64,000 nt of DNA from Patescibacteria group bacterium (GTDB taxonomy: Bacteria; Patescibacteriota; Patescibacteriia; Magasanikbacterales; GWA2-37-8). Under the pieces are notes generated by a model. It saw nothing but the letters and a program-made list of their open reading frames with translations. It was not told the DNA's origin and ran no database searches. This document shows, piece after piece, positions 21,380 to 60,490 of the stretch (position 1 is the first letter of the stretch; each line of letters starts with the position of its first letter). The stretch is taken from NCBI GenBank assembly GCA_041651015.1, contig JBAZKA010000001.1:62000-125999 (forward strand). Direction: 5' to 3'. The translations under genes and the position numbers were made by a program.

Positions 21380-22789
21380 TTATGCCACTTTCGTACCGTC
21401 AGGCGTATCCATTACCGTATAGCCGAGTTTGATTAAACGGTCGCGCAGTTCATCGCTTTTCTTCCAATCCTTGGCCGTGCGAGCTGTATCGCGCTCAGTC
21501 AAAAGTTTATGCACACTGTCGGGAATTTTGGCTTCCAAACATTCTTTGATTTTTAGTCCGAGAATTTTGTCCCAAGCGATTAAAGTTTTTTGACTGATTC
21601 TTTTATTTTTTATTGCCTCCCACATTAGCGCAATGGCATTGGGTGTGTCCAAATCATCATTGATCGCCGCTATGAATTTATCTTTGATTTTTTCTTCCTC
21701 GGCCACGGCATGACGAGAGACTGAAGCCCTCTTGGGTAATTCGCGGGCGATGGCACAGAGATGCTTCAATCCGCTTTGCGCCGCCGTAAGCGCCTCCCAA
21801 CTAAAAGATAATTGTTTGCGATAATGAGTTTGTAAAATAAAATAACGATAGGCGATAGGGTCAACATTTTTTTCTTTGATCGTGTCTATGGTGACAAAAT
21901 TTCCCAGCGATTTGCTCATTTTGTCCTCGCCCATGTTTAGAAATTCATTGTGCATCCAATAATGCGCCGGTATTACTCCTTCGGCCGCTTCGGTTTGGGC
22001 AATTTCATTGGTGTGGTGCACGGGGATATGGTCAATACCACCGGTATGGATATCAAAAGGAATGCCAAGGTATTTGGCGGACATGGCCGAACATTCAATA
22101 TGCCAGCCCGGGAAACCTTTGCCCCACGGGCTGTCCCATTCCATTTGGCGCTGAGCCAAAACCGGAGAAAATTTCCATAAGGCAAAATCTGAAGCATGGT
22201 GTTTGCCACCCATGGCCACGCGGGCGCCGGCGCGGAGTTCCTGTTTGTCTAAACGCGCCAATCGGCCATAGCCGGCCAATTTTTTGGTGTCAAAATATAT
22301 TCCATCCAAAGTGGTATAAGTAAACCCCTTTCGTTCCAATTTTTTTATTAAATTGATTTGCTCCTTGATGTGGTCGGTGGCTCGGCAAACGACTTCCGGT
22401 TCTTTGATATTCAAGTCGTTTAAATTTGCCATGAAGGCTTTGGTATAATATTTGGCAATGTCCCAGGCGGTTTTTTTTTCGCGAGCCGCGCCTTTTTCCA
22501 TTTTATCATCGCCTTCATCACCATCGCCGGTCAAATGCCCAACGTCGGTGATATTCATCACGTGTTTGACTTTAAAGCCATCGGCCTTTAATGTCCGATG
22601 CAAAATATCCCAAGTAATGTATGAGCGCAAATTGCCGATATGCGCGTAGTCGTAAACAGTCGGACCGCAAGCATAAATGCCGACCTTGCCCTCGTGAATC
22701 GGGACAAAATCCTCAATTTTACGCGACATGGTATTGTAGAGGCGGAGAGTCATATATTTGTGTATATATATTAGCTGAAACCTCGTCAT
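21380..22789 (-). CDS. cysS: Cysteinyl-tRNA synthetase
   Basis: 469 aa; HIGN(L) motif, KMSKSLGN motif, CysRS-like anticodon-binding C-terminus. Confidence 0.92.
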   Translation of the reverse strand: MTRFQLIYIHKYMTLRLYNTMSRKIEDFVPIHEGKVGIYACGPTVYDYAHIGNLRSYITWDILHRTLKADGFKVKHVMNITDVGHLTGDGDEGDDKMEKGAAREKKTAWDIAKYYTKAFMANLNDLNIKEPEVVCRATDHIKEQINLIKKLERKGFTYTTLDGIYFDTKKLAGYGRLARLDKQELRAGARVAMGGKHHASDFALWKFSPVLAQRQMEWDSPWGKGFPGWHIECSAMSAKYLGIPFDIHTGGIDHIPVHHTNEIAQTEAAEGVIPAHYWMHNEFLNMGEDKMSKSLGNFVTIDTIKEKNVDPIAYRYFILQTHYRKQLSFSWEALTAAQSGLKHLCAIARELPKRASVSRHAVAEEEKIKDKFIAAINDDLDTPNAIALMWEAIKNKRISQKTLIAWDKILGLKIKECLEAKIPDSVHKLLTERDTARTAKDWKKSDELRDRLIKLGYTVMDTPDGTKVA

Positions 22790-22790
22790 A

Positions 22791-22819
22791 TTTCAAGAGT
22801 GGGGGAGGTATGGTATAAT
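22791..22819 (+). promoter_or_regulatory. Extended -10 promoter upstream of pilM
   Basis: TTTCAA, 17-bp spacer, TGgTATAAT. Confidence 0.45.
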
Positions 22820-22820
22820 A

Positions 22821-22900
22821 AGTTCATAAAGTTATAAAGTTCAAAGTTCGTAAAGTCCTCGCGACTCAGTGACTTTATAACTTTATAACTTTATGAACTT
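22821..22900. repeat. ATAAAGTT-type palindromic repeat array forming a ~26-bp inverted repeat in the pilM leader (family copy 1)
   Basis: GTTCATAAAGTTATAAAGTTCAAAGT ... ACTTTATAACTTTATAACTTTATGAAC; same family at 42168-42258. Confidence 0.65.
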
Positions 22901-22914
22901 TATAAACTTCGTTT

Positions 22915-24063
22915 ATGTTTTCCAAACCCAAAGGCTTTATCGGCGTTGACCTTGGCGCCGGCGGAGTCAAAATTGTTGAATTGCGCGAAGAAAAAAAGCG
23001 TCCGGTTTTGTATACCTATGCCCTGACTTCAGAGTCTCAGGATGTGCATCAGCTGTTGGCCGAAACCCGGGAAAAACTTTTGGCGCCGGAAGCTGTGCAG
23101 ATTGAACAAAAGCAAAATATCCGCGGAGATAAAAAGGCCGCGCCCATGGTTGACGCATCTGACGCCAGAGTACAAAAATACGCTGACACGCTTCATGCCG
23201 CCTGTGTCGCGGCCAAAACTTCATCCAAAATCGCGGTCGGAAGTTTGCCCGTGTCCGCGGTGTTTCATTCTATTGTCACCATGCCGGCGGTTGATGCCAA
23301 AGAATTTTTGGGCATTCTCAAGGCTGAAGTGAAAAAATTATTGCCTTATTCCATTGACGACATGGTTTTGGACTATCAGGTGTTGGAATCATTTTCCACG
23401 GATAAGGTCAAAAAAATAATGGTTAGCGCCGTGCCCAAAGCCATCGTGGAATTTTATTCAAAAGTTTTCCGCCGGGCCGGTTTGACCTTGGAATCATTAG
23501 AGCCGGAATCAATGGCCTTGTCGCGCTCGCTCATCGGCCGGGACCGCGCCGTCACCATGCTGATTGATATGGGCGCCGAGCGGACAAACTTTTTTATAAT
23601 TGATGAAGCCATCCCGATTACCAATCATTCTATTGAATCAGGTGGTAATAAAATCAATCGCTTGATGATGTCCACACTCGGGGTTGAAGAATCCGAGGTG
23701 CCACAAATCAAACACGACCTGTATCAGCGTTCGCTTGCGGGCAACGGCACAATTGACCGTAAAACATTTATTGATTTGCTTATGCCGGTCATTGATCCGA
23801 TTGTCAAACAAATTGAATACAGCTTTGGCGTTTATTTTAACCAAACGGGCAACGAACAAAAGAAGCCCGAGAAAATTATTTTGACCGGCGGTGCGGCCAT
23901 GGTGCCATATCTGGCGGAATATTTGGCTGATTATTTTAAAATTAAATGTTATTTGGGCGACCCGTGGGCGAGAGTAGTACATCAGGACAAATTACAACCG
24001 TTATTAAATGAGATCGGGCCGAGAATGTCTATTGCGATTGGTTTGGCGCTCAAGAATTTATAA
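22915..24063 (+). CDS. pilM: Type IV pilus assembly ATPase-like protein PilM (actin fold)
   Basis: 382 aa; N-terminus FIGVDLGAGGVKIVEL and overall PilM/FtsA-like pattern. Confidence 0.8.
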   Translation: MFSKPKGFIGVDLGAGGVKIVELREEKKRPVLYTYALTSESQDVHQLLAETREKLLAPEAVQIEQKQNIRGDKKAAPMVDASDARVQKYADTLHAACVAAKTSSKIAVGSLPVSAVFHSIVTMPAVDAKEFLGILKAEVKKLLPYSIDDMVLDYQVLESFSTDKVKKIMVSAVPKAIVEFYSKVFRRAGLTLESLEPESMALSRSLIGRDRAVTMLIDMGAERTNFFIIDEAIPITNHSIESGGNKINRLMMSTLGVEESEVPQIKHDLYQRSLAGNGTIDRKTFIDLLMPVIDPIVKQIEYSFGVYFNQTGNEQKKPEKIILTGGAAMVPYLAEYLADYFKIKCYLGDPWARVVHQDKLQPLLNEIGPRMSIAIGLALKNL

Positions 24064-26379: not shown

Positions 26380-28548
<2,169 letters not shown>

Positions 28549-28549
28549 T

Positions 28550-31500
28550 ATGTCGGAGAAATTCAGACCCATGCCGGAGGAGGCAAGGGGGGAAATAAAA
28601 TCGGAAAAACCGAGTGATATTAAGGTTGAAAAAAATGATAATATTGAAAAGGAAAAATTACCGCAAGTGGACAAAGAGACCGGAATTTATACGGATGAGA
28701 ACGGAGAGGAGTGGGCAACGGTAAGTATGGTCGTAAAGTTGTTGGGTTTAAGCGGCGCTGTATTTACCAAAGAACGTCTCTCAGGTGTCCGCTCAATTCG
28801 CGGGCGTGATGGTACGGGTAAGTCCGTCAATCTATTAAATTTAACTGATATAAAAATTTTTTTTGCAGACCATTTGCGGTTACCTCAAGTAGACAAAGAA
28901 ACCGGTATTTATAAGGATGAAAATGGAGAGCAATGGGCGACAGCGCCAGCTGCTGCCGAGCTATTTGGGTTTGGCGCTGACATGTTATCTAAGGAGCGTC
29001 TCGCCTACGTCCGTTCAATACGTGGACGAAGCAGAAGCGGTAATTTCGTTAATTTGTATAATCTCACCGACCTCAGAAATTATTTTGCAGACCATTTGCG
29101 GTTACCTCAAGTAGACAAAGAAACTGGTATTTATACGGATGAGAATGGAGAGCAATGGGTAACGTTAAAAACGGCATCTGACATTATCGGAGTTTATGAG
29201 GTGATGATTACTAAGAAACGTTTGTCCAAAGTCCGTTCAATTCGTGGCCGCGATAGGGTCGGCCGCGGCCCCAATCATGGTCAGCCGAATAACCTATTTA
29301 ATTTATCTGACCTGAAAAAGTTGTTTGCAGACCATTTGCGGTTACCTCAAGTAGACAAAGAAACTGGTATTTATACGGATGAGAATGGAGAACAATGGGT
29401 AGCGTTAAAAACGGCATCTGACATTATCGGAGTTTACCAGGTGATGTTTACTGAGAAACGTTTGTCCAAAGTCCGTTCAATTCGTGGCCGCGATAGGGTC
29501 GGCCGCGGCCCCAATCATGGTCAGCCGAATAACCTATTTAATTTATCTGACCTGAAAAAGTTGTTTGCAGACCATTTGCGGTTACCTCAAGTAGACAAAG
29601 AAACTGGTATTTATACGGATGAGAATGGAGAGCAATGGGCGACAAAAAGTGCCGCGGCAAAGTTTTTTATGTTAGACGTAAAGTTGTTTACTAAAAAACG
29701 TCTTTTTAGTATACGTGCGATACGTGGCCGCGGTGCTGGAATTAGCTCTCCCGAACCCGGTCAACTGGGCAACCTATTTAATTTATCTGACCTGAAAAAG
29801 TTGTTTGCCGATTATCTACATCTGCCACAAGTGGATAAGGAGACCGGTATTTATACGGATGAAAACGGAGAGCGGTGGGTGGCGCGTGCCACAGCAGCAA
29901 AAATGTTTGGTGTAGACGTCGTAACTCTTACCGCACTGCGCTTGTCTCAAGTACGTTCAATTCGCGGCCGCTATAAGGATGGTCGTGCTCCTGAATTTGG
30001 TCAGCCGAATAATTTATTTAATCTCTCCGACCTAGAAAAAGTTTTTGCCGATTACATTACCCAGAAAAAAGGATCCGCTCAAGACCGCGAACTCCGTGAA
30101 TCATTTGATAAAAAAATTAACGAGATCGCGGACGGAGAAACATTTGACGCGCAAAAATTCCGTTCACTGGTAGATGCTTTTGGCGCGGCGCGATGCGTAG
30201 ATATTTTATATCGTCTTTATCCGGAATTTAAAGGCTTGCCGATTGAGCACATCAAGGGAACAATGGCCGATTATCTCGGGGATTTTTTAATTGCCAAAGG
30301 CGATTTTCATCCGAGAAATTGGGGAGACATTGAACCGTTTTTGTCTGATGTAACTTTTCGCGAGTCATTGTACGAAACCGTCAAGGACCATTGTTTACGG
30401 TATTTTTTTATTAAGAAACGCGAAGAACCGCAGAGAGATAATTTGGAAATAATTTATGAGTATTTGGATAATGCCGCGAGCGAGGTCCAAGGAATTGACA
30501 GTAAAGAGTTGGATGACATAATCCAGAACGTGATTGAGTATTATGATGCGGCCATACGTGATTTTGAAAAACCCGAAGGTTTTAAAGACCGTTTGACGAC
30601 TGACCGGGAATTTCCCGACATCAATCAAAAAATAAACATGAAAGAGCTATCCGACAAGAAACGAATTTTGATTGCCGATGAAATGGGTTTGGGCAAAAGT
30701 GCCTCGGTCATTATGGCCAAAGAACAGCTCGGCGTGGCTTGCGCGCTGGTCACGGCGCCGGCCAATGTGATTGAAACCTGGAAAAAATATTTATCCGATG
30801 AAGACGGCGGGTATTATCTGGAGGGCAAAGCGCCAAAAGTTTTGAGCATAGAAAAGTCCGAAGATTTGGACCGAACGGCGAGTGAACAATTTGATTTCAT
30901 ATTGATCTCGCATGAACGTTTGTCTGCCGGCGCGGATATTGTGGAGAAGTTATCCCTGGCCGGATTTGATATGCTCGTCGTGGATGAAGCGCATAAAATG
31001 AAAAATCCCAAGGGCCAGCGGGCCGAGCAGGCCTTGGAACTCGCGGCTTCGCTTGACCCGGAAACGGGATATTTGGCCCTGTTGTCCGGTACGCCGGTGC
31101 CGAATAAAGTCGGTGATATCGCCATAGCTTTGAAAATGCTATATCCGGATAAATTTGCCGATGTTCCGGCTGAAGAATTGTCCGGCCAAATTATCAGCGG
31201 AGATATTTTGGATCTGCGTAGTTTGCTTATGCCACGAATGCAAATGAAAGATTTGCGAGAGAGTATTGACATGCCCGAGCTGACGGAAACCATTGTGCCG
31301 ATTTCGTTGTCGCCGGAAGAGCGGGATATTTATGAAGCGTTGCTGGAAGACGATGAAGTGACAGCCACGGAAAAAATGAAAATTCTGCGTCAATTTTTGC
31401 TTAATCCCGATTTGGTCGTACTTGACCCGAATTTGGAAAGCTCAAAGATTCGCGCTTGTCGCGAGAGATTAAACGAAGCTTTCGCCGAACACGATAAAGT

Positions 31501-33028
31501 TGTGATGTTCGTAAATAATTATTTGGAAGGCGTAGTCCGAGGGGAGACCGATATATTTGATAAATTAAATTTATCGGATGACATTCGGGTGATTAAGATT
31601 CATGGCAATGTGCCGATGACAGAGCGTAAAAAGATTGAACAAGAATTTAACGAGAGCGGTGAAAAAATATTACTGGTCGTAAGCGGGCAGACAGCCGACG
31701 TGGGCGTGGATTTTTCCAACGGCCAAAAAGTAATTTTTTATAACGAGCCGTGGACCGAGTACCAAAGAAGACAAGAATTGGGTCGCGTTTTTCGTCCGGG
31801 AGTAAAAGATAATTTGGATAGCGAGGTTTTGGTTGCCGAAAAAACCATAGAGCAAGGCATCCATGAGTATATCTGGCGCAAATATAAAGCGGTGGAAAAG
31901 CTTTTGCGCGGCGTACCGATTACTGAATTGGAAAAAACACTGTTAAATAAAACCGAACAAGCCGAAGACCCGGACTTGGAAGTTAATCCGGAGCTGGCGC
32001 GTTATTATCTTTCTTGTTGGGACAAGATGATGCAGTATTTCGGTTATGCCAAAGAACTTGGCGAGGCAAAATTTGAAAAGTTTTTGGCTGATTACGGGCG
32101 CGATTATGCCGAAGGCTACCGTGAGCTCGGCAATCGCAGTTATCAGGCGAACGCGAATAGAATTTCCGGCGCGATGATTGAACATGTTGCCGCGCAAAAT
32201 AAAATATCCGCCAAAGATCTTAAAATATTGGACATGGCCTCTGGTCCGGAAATGCTTAGGCGCCACATCGCGGATGATTTACAAAATAGCGTCGTGAGTT
32301 TGGATATCAATCCACATCATCTGCAGAATGCTTCAGGGGATGTTATAAATGCGAGCGCTCGTAAAACCCCGTTTAAAGATAAAAGTTTTGATTATGTAAA
32401 TTATGCGCTCGCTTGGCACTATGGTAAATTTGTTCCGTCACGAAGCGATTTTGAACGCGCGGAAATTTTGGCCGAAGCCAATCGCGTCTTAAAAAACGAC
32501 GGCCGTTTGGTTTTGAGTTTGATTTACTCGGTAAATGTGGCGGATGAAGAAAAATTCATTGCCGCGGTTAATGAGTTGGGGTTTGAGATTGACTCCGAAC
32601 ACAGTGGGGAAGCCGTCAGCGAAAATGTGTTTCGTTCAAAAATTTATACCCTTAAAAAAGTGCGTGATTTGGATAAATCTCCGGCCGAGGCGGCGTCGGA
32701 GATTAGTCCGGATAATTATCCCGGGATGAAAATTCGCACCGACAAGGGTTCGTTAAAAAATTCGCGTAAAATCGTCGGCGGCTTTACCTTGAACGGTCAA
32801 GAAGTCGCGGTTGATCTGAACAGCGCCGACAAAGAAGCGTTGGACGAGGAGCGAAATGTTAGCCAAGAGATGAAGACGTTGAAAGATAAATTTGAAGGGA
32901 TAAAAAATATTCCGCGAGCAGAGATATTGTCCAATAAGTTCGCGCGCATTTTAATCGGGAAAAAGTTTGCTTTGTTCAAAAAACTGGAACGTGGCAGCGG
33001 CGCGGTTGTTATTAAAGATGAAAATTAA
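28550..33028 (+). CDS. Giant multidomain protein: six tandem ~80-aa N-terminal repeats + SNF2-family helicase + C-terminal class I SAM methyltransferase
   Basis: 1492 aa. Repeats LPQVDKETGIYTDENGEQW...VRSIRGRD...NLFNLSDLKKLFADHLR x6. SNF2_N with ADEMGLGKS and DEAH box LVVDEAHKMKN. Helicase-C VVSGQTADVGVDFSNGQKVIFYNEPWTEYQRRQELGRVFRPG. MTase motif I ILDMASGPE, acidic post-I VVSLDIN, LKNDGRLVL. Start overlaps the ligA stop. Confidence 0.75.
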   Translation: MSEKFRPMPEEARGEIKSEKPSDIKVEKNDNIEKEKLPQVDKETGIYTDENGEEWATVSMVVKLLGLSGAVFTKERLSGVRSIRGRDGTGKSVNLLNLTDIKIFFADHLRLPQVDKETGIYKDENGEQWATAPAAAELFGFGADMLSKERLAYVRSIRGRSRSGNFVNLYNLTDLRNYFADHLRLPQVDKETGIYTDENGEQWVTLKTASDIIGVYEVMITKKRLSKVRSIRGRDRVGRGPNHGQPNNLFNLSDLKKLFADHLRLPQVDKETGIYTDENGEQWVALKTASDIIGVYQVMFTEKRLSKVRSIRGRDRVGRGPNHGQPNNLFNLSDLKKLFADHLRLPQVDKETGIYTDENGEQWATKSAAAKFFMLDVKLFTKKRLFSIRAIRGRGAGISSPEPGQLGNLFNLSDLKKLFADYLHLPQVDKETGIYTDENGERWVARATAAKMFGVDVVTLTALRLSQVRSIRGRYKDGRAPEFGQPNNLFNLSDLEKVFADYITQKKGSAQDRELRESFDKKINEIADGETFDAQKFRSLVDAFGAARCVDILYRLYPEFKGLPIEHIKGTMADYLGDFLIAKGDFHPRNWGDIEPFLSDVTFRESLYETVKDHCLRYFFIKKREEPQRDNLEIIYEYLDNAASEVQGIDSKELDDIIQNVIEYYDAAIRDFEKPEGFKDRLTTDREFPDINQKINMKELSDKKRILIADEMGLGKSASVIMAKEQLGVACALVTAPANVIETWKKYLSDEDGGYYLEGKAPKVLSIEKSEDLDRTASEQFDFILISHERLSAGADIVEKLSLAGFDMLVVDEAHKMKNPKGQRAEQALELAASLDPETGYLALLSGTPVPNKVGDIAIALKMLYPDKFADVPAEELSGQIISGDILDLRSLLMPRMQMKDLRESIDMPELTETIVPISLSPEERDIYEALLEDDEVTATEKMKILRQFLLNPDLVVLDPNLESSKIRACRERLNEAFAEHDKVVMFVNNYLEGVVRGETDIFDKLNLSDDIRVIKIHGNVPMTERKKIEQEFNESGEKILLVVSGQTADVGVDFSNGQKVIFYNEPWTEYQRRQELGRVFRPGVKDNLDSEVLVAEKTIEQGIHEYIWRKYKAVEKLLRGVPITELEKTLLNKTEQAEDPDLEVNPELARYYLSCWDKMMQYFGYAKELGEAKFEKFLADYGRDYAEGYRELGNRSYQANANRISGAMIEHVAAQNKISAKDLKILDMASGPEMLRRHIADDLQNSVVSLDINPHHLQNASGDVINASARKTPFKDKSFDYVNYALAWHYGKFVPSRSDFERAEILAEANRVLKNDGRLVLSLIYSVNVADEEKFIAAVNELGFEIDSEHSGEAVSENVFRSKIYTLKKVRDLDKSPAEAASEISPDNYPGMKIRTDKGSLKNSRKIVGGFTLNGQEVAVDLNSADKEALDEERNVSQEMKTLKDKFEGIKNIPRAEILSNKFARILIGKKFALFKKLERGSGAVVIKDEN
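28658..30050 (+). repeat. Tandem ~240-bp in-frame DNA repeats (6 units) within the 5-prime part of the giant gene
   Basis: Units 29127-29340 and 29367-29580 are about 97 percent identical at the DNA level; the motif TTTGCAGACCATTTGCGGTTACCTCAAGTAGACAAAGAAAC recurs every ~240 bp. Confidence 0.85.
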
Positions 33029-33077: not shown

Positions 33078-33165
33078 TTATGGTATAATTATTTCATCAA
33101 TTACATCAACTTAATTATTTCGTCGCATTCATCATTTTCATCAACTTCATCATTTTCATCATTCA
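33078..33165 (+). promoter_or_regulatory. Extended -10 element (TGGTATAAT at 33081-33089) followed by four 9-bp CATCAnnTT repeats immediately upstream of the ppsA start
   Basis: TTCATCA at 33128, 33137, 33146, 33155 with 9-bp periodicity, plus one copy at 33094. Confidence 0.5.
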
Positions 33166-33168
33166 ATT

Positions 33169-35637
33169 ATGCCTTCGAGCAAATACATTTCTTGGTTCAA
33201 AGATTTAACAATCAAAGACATTCCGACGGTCGGCGGTAAGAACGCTTCGCTCGGCGAGATGTATGCCAAACTCACAGCCAAAGGCATTGTCGTGCCGAAT
33301 GGTTTTGCTATCACGGCCGAAGCCTATCGCGCGCACATGAAAGAAAACGATTTGGAAGGCAAAATAAAAAAATTAATGTCCGGGTTAAACGCGCGAAATG
33401 TGCGCGACTTGGCCATTGCCGGAAACAAAATTCGTCAGATGATTTTGGCGGAAAATTTGCCTTGGGAAGTGGTGCGCGATGTTAAAGCCTCATATCAGGA
33501 ATTGTGCAAATCCACCGGTAAAAGACAATTAGCCGTGGCCGTGCGTTCCAGCGCGACTGCCGAGGATTTACCTAACGCCAGTTTTGCCGGCCAACAGGAA
33601 ACCTATCTCAATATTCGCGGAGAAAAAGAATTATTGATTGCCGTAAAAAAATGCATTGCTTCGCTTTTTACCGACCGAGCAATTTCCTATCGCGTGGACA
33701 AAGGTTTTGACCACACGGCCGTGGCCTTGTCCGTGGCCGTGCAAGAGATGGTCAGATCAGACATCGGCGCGTCCGGCGTGATGTTTACTTTGGATACCGA
33801 ATCAGGGCACAAGGGCGTGGTCCTAATTAACGCGGCCTATGGCCTTGGCGAATATGTGGTCAAGGGCCGGGTGGTGCCGGATCAATTTTATGTTTTTAAA
33901 GACGGCGTCAAGCGCGGTTTGAATTCAATTATTAGCAAACGGCTCGGCACCAAGCAAGTAAAATTAATTTATGCCAAAAAAGGCGGAACAATTCAAGCAC
34001 CGGTAAATATCTCCGAGCAAAATGTTTTTTGCGTGGACGATAAAGACGTCATCACTTTGGCCAAATGGGGGATGATGATAGAGGAGCACTATGGCCACGC
34101 CATGGATATTGAATGGGCCAAAGACGGTGAGACCGGCAAAATGTATATTGTGCAAGCGCGTTCCGAGACCGTGAAATCCCAAGAGAAAATAAATATCATT
34201 GAAACATATCATTTGGAAAAAAAGAGCGCGGTTTTGGCCGAGGGCGCGAGTGTGGGTCAAAAAATCGGCGCAGGCAAAGTCCGCATCATTGAAACGCCCG
34301 CTAAACTAAAAAATTTCAAAAAAGGCGAAGTGCTGGTGACGCGTTTGACCGACCCTGATTGGGAACCGATTATGCGATTGGCCAGCGCCATTGTCACCGA
34401 GCAAGGCGGCAAGACCTCGCACGCGGCTATTGTCTCGCGCGAACTTGGCATCCCGTGTATTGTGGGAGCGGCCAACGCGCGCAAGCTTTTGAAAAACGGC
34501 GAACCGGTCACCGTGTCTTGCGCCGAAGGCGAGGCCGGCTATGTTTATAAAGGAATTTTGCCGTTCTCGGTCCAGCGTACCGAGCTCAAAGAATTGCAAA
34601 AGACGCGCACCAAAGTAATGATGAACGTGGGCGACCCAAACAGCGCGCTCGCGCTCGCGTCTATTCCCAACGACGGCGTGGGACTGGCGCGTGAAGAATT
34701 TATATTTACGGATTTTATCAAAATTCATCCGTTAGCCTTGGTTAATTTTGATAAACTCAAAGATAAAAAAGCCAAACATAAAATCAGCGAGATGACCGTC
34801 GGCTATAAAAACAAAACCGATTTTTGTGTGGATAGATTAGCCGAGGGCATTGCTTTTATCGCGACCGCTTTTTATCCCAACAATGTGATTGTTCGTTTGT
34901 CGGATTTTAAAACCAATGAATATGCCACGCTTTTGGGCGGGGCAGAGTTTGAACCCAAAGAAGAAAATCCCATGATCGGCTGGCGCGGAGCTTCGCGTTA
35001 TTATGACCCCAAATACAAAGAGGGTTTTCATTTGGAGTGCAAGGCGCTCAAAAAAGTCCGCGAGGATTGGGGGCTCAAAAATGTGATTATTATGGTGCCA
35101 TTCTGCCGGACGCCCGAAGAAGGTAAAAAAGTTTTAGCCACGATGAAAGAATTTGGTTTGGAACGCGGTAAAAATGATTTGAAAGTTTATGTGATGTGCG
35201 AAATTCCGTCCAATGTAATTTTGGCCGACGACTACGCGCAAATTTTTGACGGATTTTCCATTGGTTCAAATGATTTAACCCAATTGACTTTGGGCGTGGA
35301 CCGCGATTCGGCCTTGGTCAGTCATATATATGATGAAAATAACGCCGCGGTCAAAAAATTAATCCGCAGTGTGATTAAAACAGCGCACAATCGCGGACGC
35401 AAGGTTGGCATCTGCGGGCAGGCGCCGAGCGATTATCCCAAGTTCGCCGAATTTTTGGTGGAAGCGGGGATTGATAGCATTTCGCTCAATCCGGACACAG
35501 TGCTCAAAACCCGCCAGAATATTTTATCCATGGAAAAGAAAATTCGCAGTCCGCTCTCGGGCGCGGCTGTGATCGCGGAAACAATTATCATTGTAGCAGT
35601 CGGCCTGATGGTAGCCATGGTAGGGTTGGCATTTTAA
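33169..35637 (+). CDS. ppsA: Phosphoenolpyruvate synthase (pyruvate, water dikinase) with an unusual C-terminal hydrophobic segment
   Basis: 822 aa; ATP-grasp N-terminus, phosphohistidine domain GGKTSHAAIVSRELGIPCIVG, PEP-utilizing C-terminus; last ~30 aa hydrophobic (AAVIAETIIIVAVGLMVAMVGLAF). Confidence 0.9.
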   Translation: MPSSKYISWFKDLTIKDIPTVGGKNASLGEMYAKLTAKGIVVPNGFAITAEAYRAHMKENDLEGKIKKLMSGLNARNVRDLAIAGNKIRQMILAENLPWEVVRDVKASYQELCKSTGKRQLAVAVRSSATAEDLPNASFAGQQETYLNIRGEKELLIAVKKCIASLFTDRAISYRVDKGFDHTAVALSVAVQEMVRSDIGASGVMFTLDTESGHKGVVLINAAYGLGEYVVKGRVVPDQFYVFKDGVKRGLNSIISKRLGTKQVKLIYAKKGGTIQAPVNISEQNVFCVDDKDVITLAKWGMMIEEHYGHAMDIEWAKDGETGKMYIVQARSETVKSQEKINIIETYHLEKKSAVLAEGASVGQKIGAGKVRIIETPAKLKNFKKGEVLVTRLTDPDWEPIMRLASAIVTEQGGKTSHAAIVSRELGIPCIVGAANARKLLKNGEPVTVSCAEGEAGYVYKGILPFSVQRTELKELQKTRTKVMMNVGDPNSALALASIPNDGVGLAREEFIFTDFIKIHPLALVNFDKLKDKKAKHKISEMTVGYKNKTDFCVDRLAEGIAFIATAFYPNNVIVRLSDFKTNEYATLLGGAEFEPKEENPMIGWRGASRYYDPKYKEGFHLECKALKKVREDWGLKNVIIMVPFCRTPEEGKKVLATMKEFGLERGKNDLKVYVMCEIPSNVILADDYAQIFDGFSIGSNDLTQLTLGVDRDSALVSHIYDENNAAVKKLIRSVIKTAHNRGRKVGICGQAPSDYPKFAEFLVEAGIDSISLNPDTVLKTRQNILSMEKKIRSPLSGAAVIAETIIIVAVGLMVAMVGLAF

Positions 35638-41613: not shown

Positions 41614-42162
41614 TTAGGTTTTGAAAATTGTGGCCGTAATCGTACTACCTTGACGCTCAACTTCCTGATCGTATTTGATGGTAATATCCGCGGTGGCCGA
41701 TTGAATAAATTTTTTGATCATTTCAAAGGCCATGGCTGATTGCTGATTTTCCCGTCCGCGTAAACAAACGTCAACTTTTACTTTGTCTCCGCCGTTCAAA
41801 AAGTTCAAGGTTTGTTTACGGCGAATTTCCATATCATTGGCGCCAATACGTAGAGACAAGCGGACGCATTTTGTCTTGGAGACATGCTGGTGCGCTTTGC
41901 GGATGCGGGAGGCCTTTTCTTGCTGGTATTGGTATTGACCGAAGTTCATGATTTTCGCCACCGGCGGTTCGGTCTTTGGATTGATTTCCACTAAATCCAT
42001 TTCTTGTTCGCGCGCTTTGCGGATCGCTTCGCCGGTCGTCATTACACCCAAACTGGCGCCGGTTGCATCCAAAACTAAAACCTGAAGAGCTTTAATCCCT
42101 TCGTTAAAGAAAAATTCTTTTTTTGGTTCTTCCGGTTTTCTGCGACGATGCGAAATACGCAT
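41614..42162 (-). CDS. infC: Translation initiation factor IF-3
   Basis: 182 aa; IF3 N- and C-domain patterns (EINPKTEPPVAKIMNFGQYQY..., KVKVDVCLRGRE); conserved infC-rpmI-rplT operon order. Confidence 0.9.
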   Translation of the reverse strand: MRISHRRRKPEEPKKEFFFNEGIKALQVLVLDATGASLGVMTTGEAIRKAREQEMDLVEINPKTEPPVAKIMNFGQYQYQQEKASRIRKAHQHVSKTKCVRLSLRIGANDMEIRRKQTLNFLNGGDKVKVDVCLRGRENQQSAMAFEMIKKFIQSATADITIKYDQEVERQGSTITATIFKT

Positions 42163-42167
42163 AAATT

Positions 42168-42258
42168 AGTTTATAAAGTTCATAAAGTTATAAAGTTCAT
42201 AAAGTAATGTGAATTTTGTGAACATAGGGTCGCGAAACTTTACAAACTTTATAAACTT
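42168..42258. repeat. ATAAAGTT-type palindromic repeat array (family copy 2), between the ssrA 3-prime end and the infC start
   Basis: AGTTTATAAAGTTCATAAAGTTATAAAGTTCATAAAGT ... ACTTTACAAACTTTATAAACTT; same family as 22821-22900. Confidence 0.65.
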
Positions 42259-42287
42259 TTTACTTTTAACTTGCCGCGAAGCGGCGG

Positions 42288-42681
42288 TGGAGATGGCGAG
42301 AGTCGAACTCGCGTCCAGATGGCCACGCCACAGCCGTCTACATGCTTAGTTCTCTTATTTTTAACCAAACTGTATTCAGAGAACGAAAATTCGTTTGGCG
42401 TGCCGGCTTTGCCTTTCAATTACTTCACCTCCGGCTCGGTTGGTAATCTACGCCTGATGATTTGCGCCGCGTTTAGTTACCAGGTGTGGCTAAGGCGACG
42501 GAAGCGGCAATTAAGCCGCGACAGGAGCAAAACTCATCGCCGGGCTAAAAGCTCGAGCAATGGATGTTTTGACTTTTGAAAATAAGTTGGCACTTATTAT
42601 TTGGTCCATGTATTTACGAGGGTTGGACCGACCTCGGCATGCGAACTATAACGCCGGTCTCTGTCAAAGCCCGGCATCCCC
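42288..42681 (-). ncRNA. ssrA: tmRNA (ssrA)
   Basis: Minus strand starts GGGGATGCCGGGCTTTGACAGAGACCGG... and ends ...GGACGCGAGTTCGACTCTCGCCATCTCCA (tRNA-like T-arm and acceptor). A candidate tag ORF beginning at nt 91 reads GCC AAC ... GTC GCG GCT TAA (ends ...FAPVAA-stop). Lies 2 nt downstream of the smpB stop. Confidence 0.85.
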
Positions 42682-54818: not shown

Positions 54819-55007
54819 TAGTTCTCCTGTCTTTTACGGTCAGGGTATTCGCAAGAATATCCTGACCGACCTTATCTTGATCAAAAATGGTTTTGGTCAA
54901 GTAGGGGAAAATACTTAGTTAGTTGCTTGACAATTAAATTAAGGGTTAGAAAAACGTTCGTGGACAAAGCCAGCGCGCGGCGTTGGTTTCAAAAAAGGGA
55001 GAACAAA

Positions 55008-56378
55008 ATGAAGAAGTTTTACGGAATGATGATTGTTGCTATGATGGCGGTCGGATGCAACGAAGGCTACGGCATCGGCGATAAGTTTTTCGCTGAAGTC
55101 GACGCCGGTTCGGACACCGACACGGACACCGACACCGATACGGACACGGATAGCGACAGCGACACCGATTCCGATACGGACACGGACACCGACACGGATA
55201 CCGATACCGACACCGATTCCGATACGGACACGGACACCGACACGGATACCGATACCGATACGGATACGGACACGGGCGAGTGCGAGGATGGTGAAGAGCA
55301 GTGTGACGGAAACATGGTTCAGGTTTGCGGCGACGACCACGAGTGGGCGAACTGGGACGAGTGTCTCGCGTCTGCTCACAAGGAGTGTGTCGAGGCCAGC
55401 TCGACCTCCGCGAACTGCGACTGCGTCTCCGGTTACCACCTGTCCGCAGGCAACTGTGTCGCGGACACGGTCGTGATCTGCACCGCTGGCTACGAGGAAT
55501 GTGACACGGATGGAAACGTTCTGGTTTGCAACTCGGCCGGCACTGCGTGGGTGGTGGACGACACTTGCCTCGCCACGAACCATGAAGAGTGTATCGAGGC
55601 CAGCTCGACCTCCGCGAACTGCGACTGCGTCTCCGGTTACCACCTGTCCGCAGGCAATTGTGTCGCGGACACGGTCGTGGTCTGCACGGCCGGCAACAAG
55701 GAGTGCGACACGGCCGGCAACGTTCTGGTTTGCAACTCGGCCGGCACTGCGTGGGTGGTGGACGACACTTGTCTCGCCTCCGCTCACGAGAAGTGCGTCG
55801 AGACCAGCTTGACCTCTGCCTCGTGCCAGTGCGTGGATGGGTACTATCTGTCCGTGGGTGTCTGCATCGCGGACACCGACACTGACACCGACACTTCGGT
55901 CGAATGCACGGACGACGGTGGCGAGTGCGCCTTGGGTTACGAATGTAAGGCGGGGCATTGTGAAATGCCCTGCGACTGGGAGAACCCTTGTGACATGGCC
56001 TCCGGTTTAGAATGCTTTTTGACCGGCAAGGATCCCGACCAGAACTGGAAGTTCTCCGGGATCTGTCTTCCCATGCCGGCGGCAACGGGCGAATTCAGTT
56101 CCGTATGGTACTACGACATGGAACTGGAGAACGATGAGGACACGGGTACGTGTGCGTATTACGATACGTACTCTCCGTCCCCGACGGAGTACTCGTCGCC
56201 AGACACCGCCGCGGCCAGCATCATGTGCACCGATAATTCGTCGGTGCCGTGGGTCATGGAGGGCGAGTTCGAAGATCCGAGCACGTCGTCCGCTCGGACC
56301 CACCTGATCGCCCACGGCGATCATAACCACCAGATGACGACTTTCGGGCGTATCCTGTATACGCCCCCCGTCCTCTGA
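55008..56378 (+). CDS. Lipoprotein with (Thr-Asp/Ser-Asp)n tracts and tandem EGF-like Cys-rich modules (ORF track from 54927; Met at 55008 with GGGAG RBS)
   Basis: Lipobox MMAVGC; ~55 residues of TD/SD dipeptide repeats; two and a half near-identical modules containing CDCVSGYHLSAGNC (CxCxxGYxLxxxxC, EGF-like). Confidence 0.6.
   Translation: MKKFYGMMIVAMMAVGCNEGYGIGDKFFAEVDAGSDTDTDTDTDTDTDSDSDTDSDTDTDTDTDTDTDTDSDTDTDTDTDTDTDTDTDTGECEDGEEQCDGNMVQVCGDDHEWANWDECLASAHKECVEASSTSANCDCVSGYHLSAGNCVADTVVICTAGYEECDTDGNVLVCNSAGTAWVVDDTCLATNHEECIEASSTSANCDCVSGYHLSAGNCVADTVVVCTAGNKECDTAGNVLVCNSAGTAWVVDDTCLASAHEKCVETSLTSASCQCVDGYYLSVGVCIADTDTDTDTSVECTDDGGECALGYECKAGHCEMPCDWENPCDMASGLECFLTGKDPDQNWKFSGICLPMPAATGEFSSVWYYDMELENDEDTGTCAYYDTYSPSPTEYSSPDTAAASIMCTDNSSVPWVMEGEFEDPSTSSARTHLIAHGDHNHQMTTFGRILYTPPVL
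55110..55275 (+). repeat. Hexanucleotide (GACACN/GATACG)n microsatellite encoding the TD/SD tract
   Basis: About 27 consecutive GAYWCN hexamers visible in the sequence. Confidence 0.9.
55357..55760 (+). repeat. Tandem ~200-bp near-identical direct repeats encoding the EGF-like modules
   Basis: 55360-55560 and 55570-55760 align with few mismatches. Confidence 0.8.
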
Positions 56379-56486
56379 CATGTTCTTTGAGCCTCGAATT
56401 CCTTTCGAGGTATATGCCCGGGCAGAGCTTATCTGCCCCAATCATATGGCATCATTTATCTCTCAAATGATCCCAGATGTAAACAA

Positions 56487-56518
56487 AAAACTCCGATTCG
56501 TCGGAGTTTTTTGTTTGG
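56487..56518. terminator. Bidirectional terminator between the lipoprotein gene and the methyltransferase gene
   Basis: AAAAAACTCCGA-ttcg-TCGGAGTTTTTTGTTT. Confidence 0.8.
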
Positions 56519-56525
56519 GAAAAAA

Positions 56526-57344
56526 TTATTTTTTTCTAAATATTACACACTTGGTATCAGTGCATTGCTTTGCGTAATTATTGTATTCATCAATTGTCGC
56601 CTTCGGTTGATACATTAGGTAATCAACATTTTTTATTATCTCAACAGCGGGGGAGACGGCTTCAAAAATTTTATCCCACTCAATGTAATCTTCGGGAAAA
56701 ACGTGGATATCACCTTCGCGCTGGTATTTCTTGTTAATAAATAATTTTATGAAAACCGTTTTGACAAAATCCCAAGTTAAAAATTCACCGGTTCGTAAAA
56801 TAAATTTGGTGCGCTCGGCTTTTGTTTGTTTGGTTTTGGCGTTGTATTCGGCGAGGACAACGTCCGGGTACCAGCGGTGTTCGTTGGCTTCATGGTCAAT
56901 GTATATTAGACCGCCCGGTTTTGCTACGCGGATCATTTCTTTGATCGCGGAAATATAATCGGGAATATGGTGCAGCACCGAATACACGGCGACAATATCA
57001 AAGTGGTCATCTTCAAAAGGTAATTTTTTACCGTCAAATAGTGCAGTCTCTATATTGAGCGCCGAGTATTGGTTTTGTAAAATTTCCAATGAAACTGATG
57101 AGAGATCGCAAGCGATAACCTTGGCGCCTTTTTCCGCAAATATTCTACTGAGATTACCGGTGCCGGCGCCGTAATCTAAAACAACCGGAGAGTTTATTTT
57201 TGTTAAACTTATTACCTCGGCAATAGTCTCCCCCAGACGTCTTTGTTCAACCGGATTGTAAATTTCCGTGTGCTTGGTATTGTATATGTAGGCATTACGG
57301 TCGTGTTGTTTGCGATTTTTTGTGATTATATGCTCGTTGGACAT
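56526..57344 (-). CDS. Class I SAM-dependent methyltransferase (Methyltransf_11-like)
   Basis: 272 aa; motif I VLDYGAGTGNLS, post-I acidic (ACDLS), PGGLIYI motif. Confidence 0.8.
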   Translation of the reverse strand: MSNEHIITKNRKQHDRNAYIYNTKHTEIYNPVEQRRLGETIAEVISLTKINSPVVLDYGAGTGNLSRIFAEKGAKVIACDLSSVSLEILQNQYSALNIETALFDGKKLPFEDDHFDIVAVYSVLHHIPDYISAIKEMIRVAKPGGLIYIDHEANEHRWYPDVVLAEYNAKTKQTKAERTKFILRTGEFLTWDFVKTVFIKLFINKKYQREGDIHVFPEDYIEWDKIFEAVSPAVEIIKNVDYLMYQPKATIDEYNNYAKQCTDTKCVIFRKK

Positions 57345-57449
57345 ATTTAGATATTAGTAATAATTTCACCATATATTATAGCCCTTTTTTCTAAAATACA
57401 AAAGTTTTTGCGCTAAATTTGGTGCGGCAGACGAAAAAGGCGCTTGCTA

Positions 57450-57478
57450 TTGACAAAAACTCTAAAACATGCTATTAT
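57450..57478 (+). promoter_or_regulatory. Sigma70 promoter (family member 4 of 4)
   Basis: TTGACA, 17-bp spacer AAAACTCTAAAACATGC, TATTAT. Confidence 0.6.
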
Positions 57479-57700
57479 ATGATGTTAAAATTAAAGGGAC
57501 AAATGCACGCGATTTGACGGTGAGAGAGCCGTAAAATTCGCATAAATTTGAAAAAACTCTCTCACGGGAGTTTTGTTTGAGTGGAGTTGTCGCTCGGATG
57601 CAAATTGTATCAAAGCGACAGGGCCGCCCCCTCAACATGGGTATATCATAGTCATGTTGAGGGGGTTGCTCTCCCTATGCCTTTGCGTTTTATGCGCGTG
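57479..57700 (+). ncRNA. Structured leader / candidate sRNA copy 2 plus a 13-bp perfect hairpin
   Basis: GTGAGAGAG...CTCTCTCACGGGAGTTTTGTTTG is analogous to 53395-53470; hairpin CCCCCTCAACATG...CATGTTGAGGGGG at 57622-57664. Confidence 0.4.
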
Positions 57701-57817
57701 GCCAAAAGAGTTTCTTTGACAATTTAATTATTGGATTTAGTTAGTTTGAGATAAGGAAAACAACCAAATGCGATTTTGGAAATCGCAAAAGATTCCGGAA
57801 ACGGAATGGAGGAAGAA

Positions 57818-60490
57818 ATGGAAAAGAGATTTTTGTTTTGTTTCGTTGCCATCGTCGCGGCTATCGCGTGTTCGCCGAACACACGAGAGCCCCATCAGTC
57901 GGTAGTGCCGCCGGATTCAGATTCGTCTACGTCCGACACGGATACCGACACCGACACGGACACAGATTCCGACACAGATTCCGATTCGGATAGCGACAGC
58001 GATTCCGACACGGACACGGACACCGACACCGACACGGACAGTGATTCGGATACGGACAGCGACACGGATACGGATTCGGACACAGATTCGGATTCGGATA
58101 CGGATAGCGACACGGATTCGGACACGGACGTGGACGCCGGCACGGATGCCGGCACCGATGGCGGGACCGATGGCGGTCTCGACGGCGGTTCGGATACCGA
58201 CACGGATACGGATAGCGATTCCGATTCTGACACAGACTCGGATAGCGACACGGATTCGGACGCCGGAACCGACGGTGGCGTAGAGCCGACCGAGTGCTCC
58301 AGTGGCGTTTGCTGCGACACGGTGACCGGACTCTTCAAGGACGATACCGTCATTTGCGGGACGTCGTTAGAGTTGAGGTGCGATGACACCGGTTGCAGCG
58401 CTGACGTTAGGAATGCCTACGTCATTACCAGCTGTCCCGGATATTCCGAGGACTGCGAAGGAATAGAGGAGGTGTTTACCAGCAGCGTCGTGGACGACTG
58501 CGGTGACAATGAAACCTGCGAAGCTTCCACCGCTCTCTGCGTCGAATGTGAGTTCGGCTGTGAAGACGATTCCTTTGGAGTCGGAACGTGCAGCGAAGAA
58601 CCCATCGTCATTGACGCCGGAGTGGACTCCGGAACTTCGGACACCGACACCGACACGGACAGTGATTCGGATACGGACAGCGACACGGATACGGATTCGG
58701 ACACAGATTCGGATTCGGATACGGATAGCGACACGGATTCGGATACGGACGTGGACGCCGGCACGGATGCCGGCACCGATGGCGGGACCGATGGCGGTCT
58801 CGACGGCGGTTCGGATACCGACACGGATACGGATAGCGATTCCGATTCTGACACAGACTCGGATAGCGACACGGATTCGGACGCCGGAACCGACGGTGGC
58901 GTAGAGCCTCCGACCGAGTGCGTGGCTGACGACCCGTGCTGTGACAGCGAGGGGTTCTACCTCGCCAACGGCACCGAGTGCGACGGTGGTACTGTGCTCT
59001 CGATCTGCGAGAGCGGGTACTTCTGTGACGGCGTCGGCGATTGCATGCTCGAGTACGTCCCCGCGTCGGACAATAAGGTCTGCGATAGCGATATCGCCGA
59101 CCTTTGTGACGCCGTGGATTACTGCGACGGTAGCGGAGGTTGCCCAGACGCGGTCCTGTCGTACGGCGATGATTGTCATGCATCCGAAGGGGCGTGTGAC
59201 GTTCAAGACATCTGCAACGGGCTCGGCAAGGATTGTCCTGATGAGCTTCTCGTCGGCGATACCTGCCGACCGGCCGTTGTTGGTGGATGCGACATCGCGG
59301 AGACCTGTTCTGGTTCTTCTCCGGACTGTCCGGCTGACGTGGTTGCTTTGGCAACGACTGTCTGCCGTGCGGCATCCGGGGTTTGCGATAAGGCCGAGAA
59401 CTGCACAGGCAGTTCGGCTACTTGCCCGGCGAACACGTTTGAGTCGGCCGCCACAGTGTGCGCGTCCAGTTACGTGTATCAGTGCAACGGCAATCTGTGC
59501 GGGTCCGATGCTCAACGGCGTCTGGTGAGGCAGTATTGTACTGGTAGCGCGGCTGCTTGCAGTGGCACTATCTACTACAACCCCTGGACCACCATCGCCA
59601 ACTGCGACGCATCGGCCATCTGCATTTCCACTTCTACCTCAGCCATGTGTTCCGAGTGCGGTTACGCTTGCCAGGACATCCCGGCAGGGACGTGTGTTGG
59701 TGAAGAAGGACAGCCGTGTGCCGAAGCTCCTTTCGAGGAGTGCGAAAGCGACGACCTGTTCTGCGACACCGACGACGTCTGCAGTGATGCTCCGGACGGC
59801 GGCATTGCCGACGGTGGCGTAGACGGTGGTTCCGATACGGACACCGACGCAGATACCGACACGGACACGGATACGGATAGCGATTCGGACACGGATGCCG
59901 ATGCCGGCCTTGATGGCGGCTCGGATACGGACACCGATAGCGACACGGATTCCGATTCCGACAGCGATGCCGGTACTGACACGGACACTGAGACTGACAC
60001 GGATACCGACACGGGCACCGAAGGAACTTTCTGTCTTGAAAAAGCAGACTGTTCCGAGGGAGAGTACTGCAATCTGGAGACGAGCCTCTGTACGCTCGTG
60101 CCGGAGTTCCCGTTACCTGCGGGACAGTACTTCTATTGCTGGGGATACAACATCACTCATGATCCCAGCAATGTGGTGTCGCAGTGCACGACAAGCTCTA
60201 CTTCCACTTGCACCTACTACGATCCGGCGGCGTCACAGCAGTATTCCGCCACGGTGTCGCTCTACTGCATCTTGGATCAGTACGGCACCACGTCCACCCC
60301 CACCTGTCCCGCGGTGCAGGACATCGGCGAGTGTTGCATCTCCGGGCAGACTGATTTCGTTGCGCGGTACGCCGCGCCGGAAGAATGCAACGACGCTGAC
60401 ACGGACAACGATCCGGTTGGTGGATGTTCTTCCTACCGCCAATGCTTGAGGGGAAGTGATGGTCACTTCCTCGCCGAAGGCCTGTTCTAG
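57818..60490 (+). CDS. Large lipoprotein with three (TD/SD)n-GTDGG tracts and multiple Cys-rich repeat modules (ORF track from 57776; Met at 57818 with GGAGGAAG RBS)
   Basis: Lipobox VAAIACS; Asp-rich dipeptide tracts; ~24-aa Cys motifs (CDxxxxCDGxGxCPD) repeated at least 6 times; about 890 aa. Confidence 0.6.
58021..58905 (+). repeat. Two ~270-bp near-perfect direct repeats (58021-58290 and 58636-58905) inside the lipoprotein gene, each largely composed of GAYWCN hexamers
   Basis: The two copies differ at about one position by eye; a third related tract lies at 59823-60020. Confidence 0.9.

Follow-up and report, generated by a model that had tools for sequence, protein, structure and literature searches.

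Two palindromic arrays of short repeats in a 64,000-nt stretch of the genome of a Patescibacteria group bacterium (assembly GCA_041651015.1, contig JBAZKA010000001.1, positions 62,000 to 125,999; hereafter the window) are, with a probability that we place at about 0.85, copies of a widespread repeat family of extragenic palindromes resembling REP, Correia, and foldback elements. The first array (E1) precedes pilM, and the second (E2) separates the transfer-messenger RNA (tmRNA) gene ssrA from infC. The family is found between the genes of bacteria that dispense with Shine–Dalgarno (SD) sites, chiefly Patescibacteria, and is apparently undescribed; literature searches on the motif strings, on promoters of the candidate phyla radiation, on leaderless mRNAs, and on inverted repeats found no description of the element. 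An earlier reading of the sequence (the original prediction) had proposed a shared regulator-binding site, a REP- or MITE-like element, or a structured 5′ leader. The second of these options fits best, as the arrays are multi-copy, intergenic, and palindromic, and both of their sites in the window are empty in relatives.

Both arrays are real, with wider bounds than were first given: E1 spans 22820–22909 and E2 spans 42163–42272. The window contains 11 copies of ATAAAGTT, where 3.2 would be expected; 0 of 100 shuffles contain as many, and nine of the 11 copies fall into two clusters (22826–22903 and 42173–42252). Three or more TAAAGT/ACTTTA hexamers per 100 nt are found only at E1 and E2 within the 64 kb, and the four arms are the only matches in the window to the pattern (AACT-N3-5)x≥2-AACT (0.1 expected). 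E1 and E2 are also the two longest inverted repeats of the window, which holds no other such arrays. Predicted folds are stable relative to shuffled sequences for both E1 (−32.7 kcal/mol, z −7.4) and E2 (−27.9 kcal/mol, z −4.7). The exact 12-mer palindrome ACTTTATAAAGT, originally described as the core of the arrays, does not occur in the window; only one-mismatch versions do, and these are the element termini. The true repeat unit is an 8–9-nt direct repeat that is inverted between arms. Each array consists of 4–5 tandem 8–9-bp units (ATAAAGTT[C]), a variable spacer, and 4–5 inverted units (AACTTTAT), with a unit consensus of TATAAAGTT on one arm and AACTTTATA on the other; left arms carry AAGTT cores joined by 2–4-nt linkers with a period of 8–9 nt, and right arms carry the inverted AACTT cores. 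The gene-proximal arms of E1 and E2 contain an identical 30-mer, AACTTTATAACTTTATGAACTTTATAAACT, which ends 6 nt before the ATG of pilM and 5 nt before that of infC. This 30-nt arm segment alone is common to the two arrays; their distal arms and spacers (13 nt vs. 29 nt) are unrelated. The features of the two sites, in window coordinates, are:

21380–22753, minus strand: cysS, divergent from pilM (Pfam)
22811–22819, plus strand: extended −10 promoter of pilM, TGGTATAAT, abutting the left end of E1 and conserved in relatives
22820–22857, plus strand: E1 distal (left) arm, AAGTTCATAAAGTTATAAAGTTCAAAGTTCGTAAAGTC, AAGTT cores with 2–4-nt linkers
22858–22870, no strand: E1 central spacer, G+C-richer and unrepeated, without similarity to the E2 spacer
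22871–22909, plus strand: E1 pilM-proximal (right) arm, holding the 30-mer at 22879–22908 and ending 5 nt before the pilM ATG
22915–24063, plus strand: pilM (PilM_2), the gene downstream of E1
41614–42162, minus strand: infC (IF3), first gene of infC-rpmI-rplT, downstream of E2
42163–42205, minus strand: E2 infC-proximal arm, reading ...ACTTTATGAACTTTATAACTTTATGAACTTTATAAACTAATTT and then ATG on the minus strand, with the 30-mer at 42168–42197
42206–42234, no strand: E2 central spacer, unrelated to the E1 spacer
42235–42272, minus strand: E2 distal arm, AAGTTAAAAGTAAAAAGTTTATAAAGTTTGTAAAGTTT on the minus strand, more degenerate than the proximal arm
42273–42285, minus strand: small G+C hairpin, GCCGCTTCGCGGC, immediately following the tmRNA 3′ end, outside the repeat
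42285–42681, minus strand: ssrA (tmRNA), upstream of E2

The gene context first assigned to both copies agrees with this map. Copy 1 lies between the extended −10 and the pilM start, divergent from cysS, with PilM_2 and CysS supported by Pfam; copy 2 lies between the ssrA 3′ end and the infC start, and the tmRNA and IF3 identities hold. The start of cysS is probably 22753 rather than 22789, and the gene has its own promoter-like site (TTGAAA-17-TAATAT at 22796–22768). A small hairpin comparable to that at 42273–42285 follows the tmRNA in one relative (L130).

Scanning reference genomes (one per species) with the strict pattern ATAAAGTT-N0-1-ATAAAGTT-N20-50-AACTTTAT, for which we estimate a chance expectation below 1, identified at least 119 matching genome loci. 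By record title, the matches listed include 71 from Patescibacteria of many classes, 11 from unclassified bacteria, 16 from Bacteroidota or Ignavibacteria (among them the isolate Butyricimonas muris), 19 labelled Gammaproteobacteria, Pseudomonadota, Nitrospirota, or Nitrospinota (labels unverified), one Gastranaerophilales metagenome-assembled genome (MAG), and one Flexilinea (Chloroflexota) genome. Such labels need care, because L025 (“Saccharibacteria”) and L064 (“Nomurabacteria”) are ~90% identical in DNA. Parsing yielded 134 elements, whose medians are 69 nt for the span and 20 nt for the inner spacer. Because the search pattern fixed the unit, these data establish that the unit recurs, not that it dominates over other units; arrays of the same architecture built from TACGAAT, ATTTTCAA, TTTGACA, TTAACA, or TCACGAA occur in the same loci. 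In Rfam 15, only the tmRNA and two tRNAs of the window reach the gathering score, and no family was recovered at E1 or E2 (E ≤ 10), where the only matches were to generic hairpins (miRNA precursors) below threshold. Viral contigs are essentially without the element (4 matches in 2.9 million, three of them minimal and the fourth, L134, consisting of short unit arrays within a large inverted repeat), and a phage vector was rejected on this basis.

Further intergenic foldback or tandem arrays, alike in architecture but with different 7–9-nt units, were observed, the units being TTAACA, TTGACA, TACGAAT, AATTAAGA, TTGGATAT, TCACGAA, ATTTTCAA, and AGTGAGT. Sites of such arrays include L007 1010–1115; L034 5167–5257; L070 286–394, 1590–1645, and 5950–6040; L055 3980–4058 and 5938–6025; L030 5467–5578; and L102 716–882, and many of them abut tRNA genes. 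The fixed-period detector misses mixed 8/9-nt arrays, such that the share of other units is illustrated only. Two loci carry unusually large structures: an expanded array with at least 12 perfect tandem TTCATAAAG units beside tRNA-Ile (L052 2406–2630), and a cluster of ~300 nt with 33 hexamers (L061 4608–4911).

A random spread over the genome, coding regions included, had been considered in the original prediction as the observation that would speak against it, and is not what the elements display. With gene calls taken from a crude open reading frame (ORF) picker that mishandles code-25 lineages, long ORFs make up 63% of the DNA but hold only four of the 134 elements (p ~1e-50); 97% of elements are intergenic. 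Elements span the whole gap between genes: the first unit often supplies its TAA as the upstream stop codon, and 5–9 nt separate the last AACT from the start codon, often in the form AACTAATT(T)ATG. Packing is equally tight at tRNA genes, including tRNA 5′ ends. Genes on either side run co-directionally at 82 sites, diverge at 21, and converge at 11, a split that is roughly that of any intergenic region; the excess of divergent over convergent sites does not reach significance (p = 0.11). Across many genomes, elements adjoin 84 or more unrelated genes, in addition to tRNAs. The downstream gene encodes a ribosomal protein in 17 of 84 cases (20%; all Pfam-confirmed), an enrichment over an assumed 6% background (p ~1e-5), and others encode EF-Ts, EF-G, NusB, SecY, ATP synthase, HU, and pilus components.

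The distribution among relatives indicates that the window's copies are young. The nearest named relatives are Magasanikbacteria. Four pilM relatives for which the upstream region was recovered (51–66% identity) keep the cysS–pilM synteny and have no element, and four IF3 relatives (78–86% identity) keep smpB-ssrA-infC, with spacers of 18–74 nt that retain the tmRNA end and carry no element. No arrays were found in ~87 kb of relatives' DNA, nor any further copies in an additional ~15 kb of the source genome (~79 kb examined including the window). The orthologous cysS–pilM and ssrA–infC sites thus show presence/absence polymorphism, the element being absent in all relatives examined; because both these sites and the ~87 kb are without arrays, E1 and E2 are recent gains of the lineage. 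On a shorter timescale, the very close genome pairs L026/L088 and L025/L064 differ by exactly one unit (8 or 9 nt), showing that arrays evolve by whole-unit slippage, and arms can be very unequal (3 vs. 7–8 units in L026/L088). In more distant classes, elements occupy the ribosomal-operon junctions S17–L14, L22–S3, and L35–L20; at matching junctions the spacers have diverged and the units are conserved.

This lability bears directly on the proposal of a regulator-binding site shared by pilM and infC. Where relatives preserve the gene order, arrays are missing from these positions and from the whole ~87 kb, and a dedicated pilM/infC operator or shared switch is not supported. A more general version, in which a ribbon–helix–helix or nucleoid-associated protein reads the AACTT cores every 8–9 bp as two inward-facing arrays and cooperatively coats intergenic DNA as an operator or insulator, we consider quite improbable. 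The 5-bp core is conserved while the linkers vary, the order of units is unmirrored and the arms may be very unequal, and there is no strand bias, as expected of a duplex-DNA site; additionally, the arrangement resembles ribbon–helix–helix operators (MetJ metboxes, omega heptads, ParG tetramer boxes), in which boxes of 4–8 bp recur every 7–8 bp in direct or inverted orientation and in variable number. However, such operators serve a few cognate promoters and a known protein, whereas the element's sites are genome-wide and evolutionarily labile. Because orthologous promoters in relatives and the ~87 kb are without arrays, there is no conserved regulon; the neighbors have no function in common, with tRNAs and convergent gene ends among them; the many other unit sequences with like architecture would require many proteins; and no candidate factor was identified.

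Comparison with known repeat families places the element close to several of them and within none. REP, BIME, and REPIN sequences of Enterobacteria and Pseudomonas are short extragenic palindromes, often located in operons and co-transcribed, that form exonuclease-blocking hairpins and are patchily distributed between relatives. The element is likewise a multi-copy, extragenic, hairpin-forming palindrome with a patchy distribution. A REP, however, is a single imperfect palindrome of ~20–40 nt with a GTAG/CTAC end, dependent on a RAYT transposase and specific to a species; the element's arms are tandem 8–9-bp units of variable number with termini AGTTTATAAAGT...ACTTTATAAACT and no GTAG end, no RAYT was seen in the ~79 kb of source genome examined, and the unit recurs across classes. 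Correia (NEMIS) elements of Neisseria are palindromes of ~100 nt beside gene starts that are co-transcribed, cut by RNase III, and strain-variable, with −10-like ends that sometimes serve as promoters. They have 26-bp terminal inverted repeats, a TA target duplication, an IHF site, and near-identical copies, whereas the element has unrelated spacers, no visible duplication, and arms that are arrays of units. By analogy, the element might work as REP/REPIN or Correia sequences do, though it fits the definition of neither: a GTAG-type REP, defined terminal repeats, a target duplication, and common internal sequence are all missing.

The presence/absence polymorphism at orthologous sites is MITE-like. 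Near-identical full-length copies, as expected of MITEs, were not found: E1 and E2 do not resemble one another in this way, and the loops of Falkowbacteria bin-6572 are also unrelated. Comparison of filled and empty sites revealed no target-site duplication at E1 or E2, although the relatives are only 51–86% identical and a short duplication could be obscured. A MITE in the strict sense was rejected, given the lack of target duplication or shared spacers and the absence of any transposase beside the elements in the loci read. Foldback (FB) transposons of Drosophila and other eukaryotes offer a structural parallel, having inverted arms of tandem short units and an arm length and central loop that vary between copies. 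FB elements are kilobases long, some with a transposase; the element is bacterial and short, and no evidence of transposition was obtained.

The promoter geometry around the elements suggests that they are transcribed. The extended −10 upstream of E1 (TGnTATAAT) is invariant in the four pilM relatives, where it stands 22–27 nt before the ATG. Among 97 elements, a sense-oriented TANAAT lies just upstream of the distal arm in 19, against 5 with an antisense one (p = 0.007), and a perfect TATAAT sits at the hairpin edge in the window and in L014, L018, L069, and L084, such that the transcript would begin at that edge. E1 would be co-transcribed as the leader of pilM, since it lies between the conserved promoter and the ATG. 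E2 would be co-transcribed between ssrA and infC, since some relatives leave only 18–25 nt between the tmRNA and infC. The structured 5′ leader envisaged in the original prediction holds for E1 in the physical sense, given its position between a conserved promoter and the pilM ATG; the element is not a dedicated riboregulator, and no Rfam family was matched.

We propose, tentatively and at somewhat below even odds, that the elements act as RNA-hairpin punctuation at transcript boundaries. Once transcribed with its neighbors, the element would fold into an interrupted A·U-rich duplex of ~25–35 bp that marks a boundary, either at the 5′ end of a transcript or between cistrons, directly before a start codon or a tRNA 5′ end. 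Duplexes of 25–35 bp are typically cut by RNase III and impede exonucleases, as in Correia elements and the intercistronic sites of phage T7; for this reason, the fates of upstream and downstream RNA could be uncoupled, to the possible benefit of the cell. The intercistronic RNase III sites of T7 provide the closest positional likeness, being hairpins between cistrons directly before a start codon, although these phage structures are unique and nonrepetitive and the element is repetitive. After cleavage or melting, a short, G-poor, and ATG-free leader would remain. The occurrence of arrays with other units but like architecture in the same genomes counts for such a generic hairpin role.

The polarity of the elements can be accommodated by this mechanism. 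Both ends share the consensus ACTTTAT(A/G)AACT, but the terminal linker differs between them: gene-proximal ends have TATA in 42 cases and TATG in 17, and other ends have TATA in 26 and TATG in 46 (p = 1e-4). The gene-proximal terminal unit is accordingly biased to TATAAACT, with a weaker bias in interior units (p = 0.055). Under the hairpin proposal, the proximal unit would be TATAAACT rather than TATGAACT because of purifying selection on the leader, which avoids ATG and G.

Several observations weigh against the family assignment and the hairpin proposal. No flanking transposase was present in the loci read and no master copy was found, and the 30-mer common to E1 and E2 could be due to chance at a level of ~3%, as estimated from linker frequencies. 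Elements have a mean fold energy of about −23 kcal/mol, and this stability does not differ between the sense (−23.2 kcal/mol) and antisense (−24.1 kcal/mol) strands, which also have equal counts of G·U pairs. Mirrored unit order in the arms is at the null level (76 of 277 matches vs. 76.8 ± 2.3), and shuffles of unit order fold as well as the real elements (−25.6 vs. −25.3 kcal/mol). Given equal strands, unmirrored order, and equally stable shuffles, no fine selection for base pairing is detectable, and the inversion of arrays of a single unit type is enough to account for the stability. Additionally, initiation could be impeded, not aided, by a stable stem that ends 3–6 nt short of the AUG, and a role as hairpin only leaves the recurrence of the unit across classes and phyla unexplained, though the search pattern fixed the unit. 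The mirrored-linker result also led us to reject an origin of the arms as mirror copies, whether by inverted duplication or by compensatory evolution.

A long and stable hairpin directly after ssrA and after tRNAs might alternatively be an intrinsic bidirectional terminator that insulates neighboring genes, for example by ending ssrA before infC. Its symmetric shape would suit both directions, and T runs follow a minority of copies, such as that before tRNA-Leu in L070. We nevertheless regard this reading as highly improbable. The window's own terminators are of a different, canonical type, with a G+C stem flanked by A and T tracts, and E1 and E2 are unlike these: neither has a G+C-rich stem with a U tract, and no U tract follows either one. 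A terminator scan found none at E1 and, near E2, only a weak site inside infC. E1 stands between a promoter and its own gene, elements occur within ribosomal-protein operons, and convergent sites are not enriched (11 vs. 21 divergent).

The genomes that carry the element lack an SD signal. In the window, GGAG, GAGG, or AGGA precedes 10.5% of starts against an in-gene background of 9.9%, and in element-bearing loci (661 genes; L001–L119) the corresponding values are 12% and 11%. Promoters in the window are canonical (TTGACA/TATAAT) and close to start codons. Among 571 element-free genes (from L001–L119, L123, L129, L132, L133, and the window), TANAAT is sharply concentrated at exactly 6 nt ahead of the ATG (20 cases vs. 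~4 at neighboring offsets), with a second bump at 9–10 nt; the 6-nt peak marks these Patescibacteria as having leaderless or near-leaderless mRNAs. One MAG, JBDRHR01 (L061, L074, L100), does use SD sites, and the element there lies farther from the start codon.

These features raise the question of whether the element is a translation signal for mRNAs without SD sites, in which the G-poor proximal arm (AACUUUAUAA repeats) would serve as an enhancer bound by S1 or the ribosome, masked by the distal arm until upstream translation or cleavage opens the hairpin. The lack of SD signal in element-bearing genomes, the start codon directly after the array, the avoidance of G and ATG in the proximal arm, and the enrichment of highly expressed genes are all consistent with such a role, as is the G-free TTCATCA leader found before the pyruvate phosphate dikinase (PPDK) gene of the window and before infC in L130. 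As a G-poor, repeated leader with a sequence resembling UUAACUUUA, the proximal arm is comparable to the T7 epsilon and tobacco mosaic virus omega leaders; the units contain UAACUUUA, matching 8 of 9 nt of the epsilon sequence, UUAACUUUA. No convincing complementarity to conserved segments of 16S rRNA was noted. Elements also occur before tRNA genes, after tmRNA and tRNAs, and between convergent genes; their ends are nearly symmetric, with no sense-strand pairing bias; and in the one SD-using genome the element is located farther upstream with the SD site intercalated. On these grounds, a translation signal seems very doubtful.

A promoter facing outward from the element is somewhat easier to entertain, though still unlikely. 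In this alternative, the terminal TATAAACT (as TATAAA or TAAACT) would be a −10 with transcription starting at or next to the ATG or tRNA +1, producing leaderless or near-leaderless RNAs, and the remaining array would be an A+T-rich upstream element. The bias to TATAAACT at gene-proximal ends would then have a direct explanation, and the spacing is plausible, since the last AACT stands 5–9 nt before the ATG and at a similar distance from some tRNA 5′ ends. Leaderless promoters are evidently in use in these genomes, given the 6-nt TANAAT peak of element-free genes, and window genes have no SD site and a TATAAT near the ATG. The excess of divergent over convergent sites (21 vs. 11) points the same way but, as noted, is not significant. 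However, while the terminal unit is −10-like, no −35 or TG extension is in register with it (as inspected in the 30-mer), a promoter scan found no promoter-like site in E2, and the clear promoter of E1 lies outside the element: the ancestral extended −10 is kept upstream, pointing into the element, as in 10 or more other elements. The final unit of many copies reads TTCAACT, TTTTAACT, or GATGAACT, sequences without the A that is critical to a −10; distances to the start codon are spread more broadly than the sharp 6-nt leaderless peak; and the consensus is nearly identical at both element ends. Finally, Bacteroidota promoters use a different consensus, yet the elements of Bacteroidota share the same geometry.

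A bolder interpretation than hairpin punctuation, and one we consider distinctly unlikely, is that the unit array TATAAAGTT/AACTTTATA is a cis-acting expression signal of SD-less bacteria, or the first prokaryotic foldback-type mobile element. Were it a signal, it would be read by a conserved factor, candidates being the RNA polymerase holoenzyme, the 30S subunit or ribosomal protein S1, and a nucleoid or ribbon–helix–helix protein yet to be discovered; the array would set the output of highly expressed genes, such as those for ribosomal proteins, translation factors, tRNAs, and pili, in Patescibacteria and Bacteroidota, with unit number as a dial tunable by slippage.

Patescibacteria make up a large share of bacterial diversity and, to our knowledge, almost nothing is known about their gene expression; the repeat sits in the very DNA that must also house their promoters, leaders, and terminators. 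Should it influence expression or the ends of transcripts, it would be a basic and so far unannotated part of gene organization, and a handle for expression tools in the few cultivable members. If it is instead a selfish repeat that is merely tolerated, it would provide a clean case of purifying selection shaping the gene-facing end only. In either case, the repeat marks genomes without an SD signal and with leaderless-type promoters, which matters for gene calling.

Several minor observations concern the two sites and their surroundings. At the cysS–pilM site, the contig of L121 starts inside E1 and that of L122, an independent assembly, starts at pilM codon 3; because both break at or beside E1, it appears that the repeat causes metagenome assemblies to fragment. 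A perfect DnaA box (TTATCCACA) is present ~80–90 nt upstream of pilM in the cysS–pilM intergenic region of L124, L125, L126, L127, and L129, and is found neither in the window nor in L123. At the second site, smpB-ssrA-infC-rpmI-rplT is syntenic in relatives, and in those with only 18–25 nt between the tmRNA 3′ end and the infC start (L131 1476–1500; L133 9983–10000) this short gap suggests that infC is probably co-transcribed with ssrA and freed by tmRNA 3′ processing.

In the window at 33083–33168, upstream of the PPDK gene (33169–35637), a second TGGTATAAT promoter is followed by a leader. This PPDK leader of ~80 nt is almost G-free and consists of direct 9-nt repeats (TTCATCA units) up to the ATG; it does not fold (−0.6 kcal/mol) and looks like an unstructured leader of the omega type, possibly related in function to the proximal arms of E1 and E2. 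TTCATCA units also precede infC in L130 (about 575–627). In the relative L132 (13893–18441), PPDK directly follows DNA ligase/BRCT genes, whereas in the compared stretch of the window (26380–33028) a gene for a 1492-aa SNF2/methyltransferase protein with its own terminator lies between ligA and PPDK, and is likely a lineage-specific insertion. The SNF2-helicase/methyltransferase ORF contains a 240-nt tandem repeat of 3.3 copies (29084–29873). Long repeats based on GACACC/CGGATA hexamers occur within 55100–60021, in two large ORFs (54927–56378 and 57776–60490) with no Pfam match above the cut-off. These repeats lie in segments with an unusually high G+C content of 0.58–0.60, compared with 0.46 for the window.

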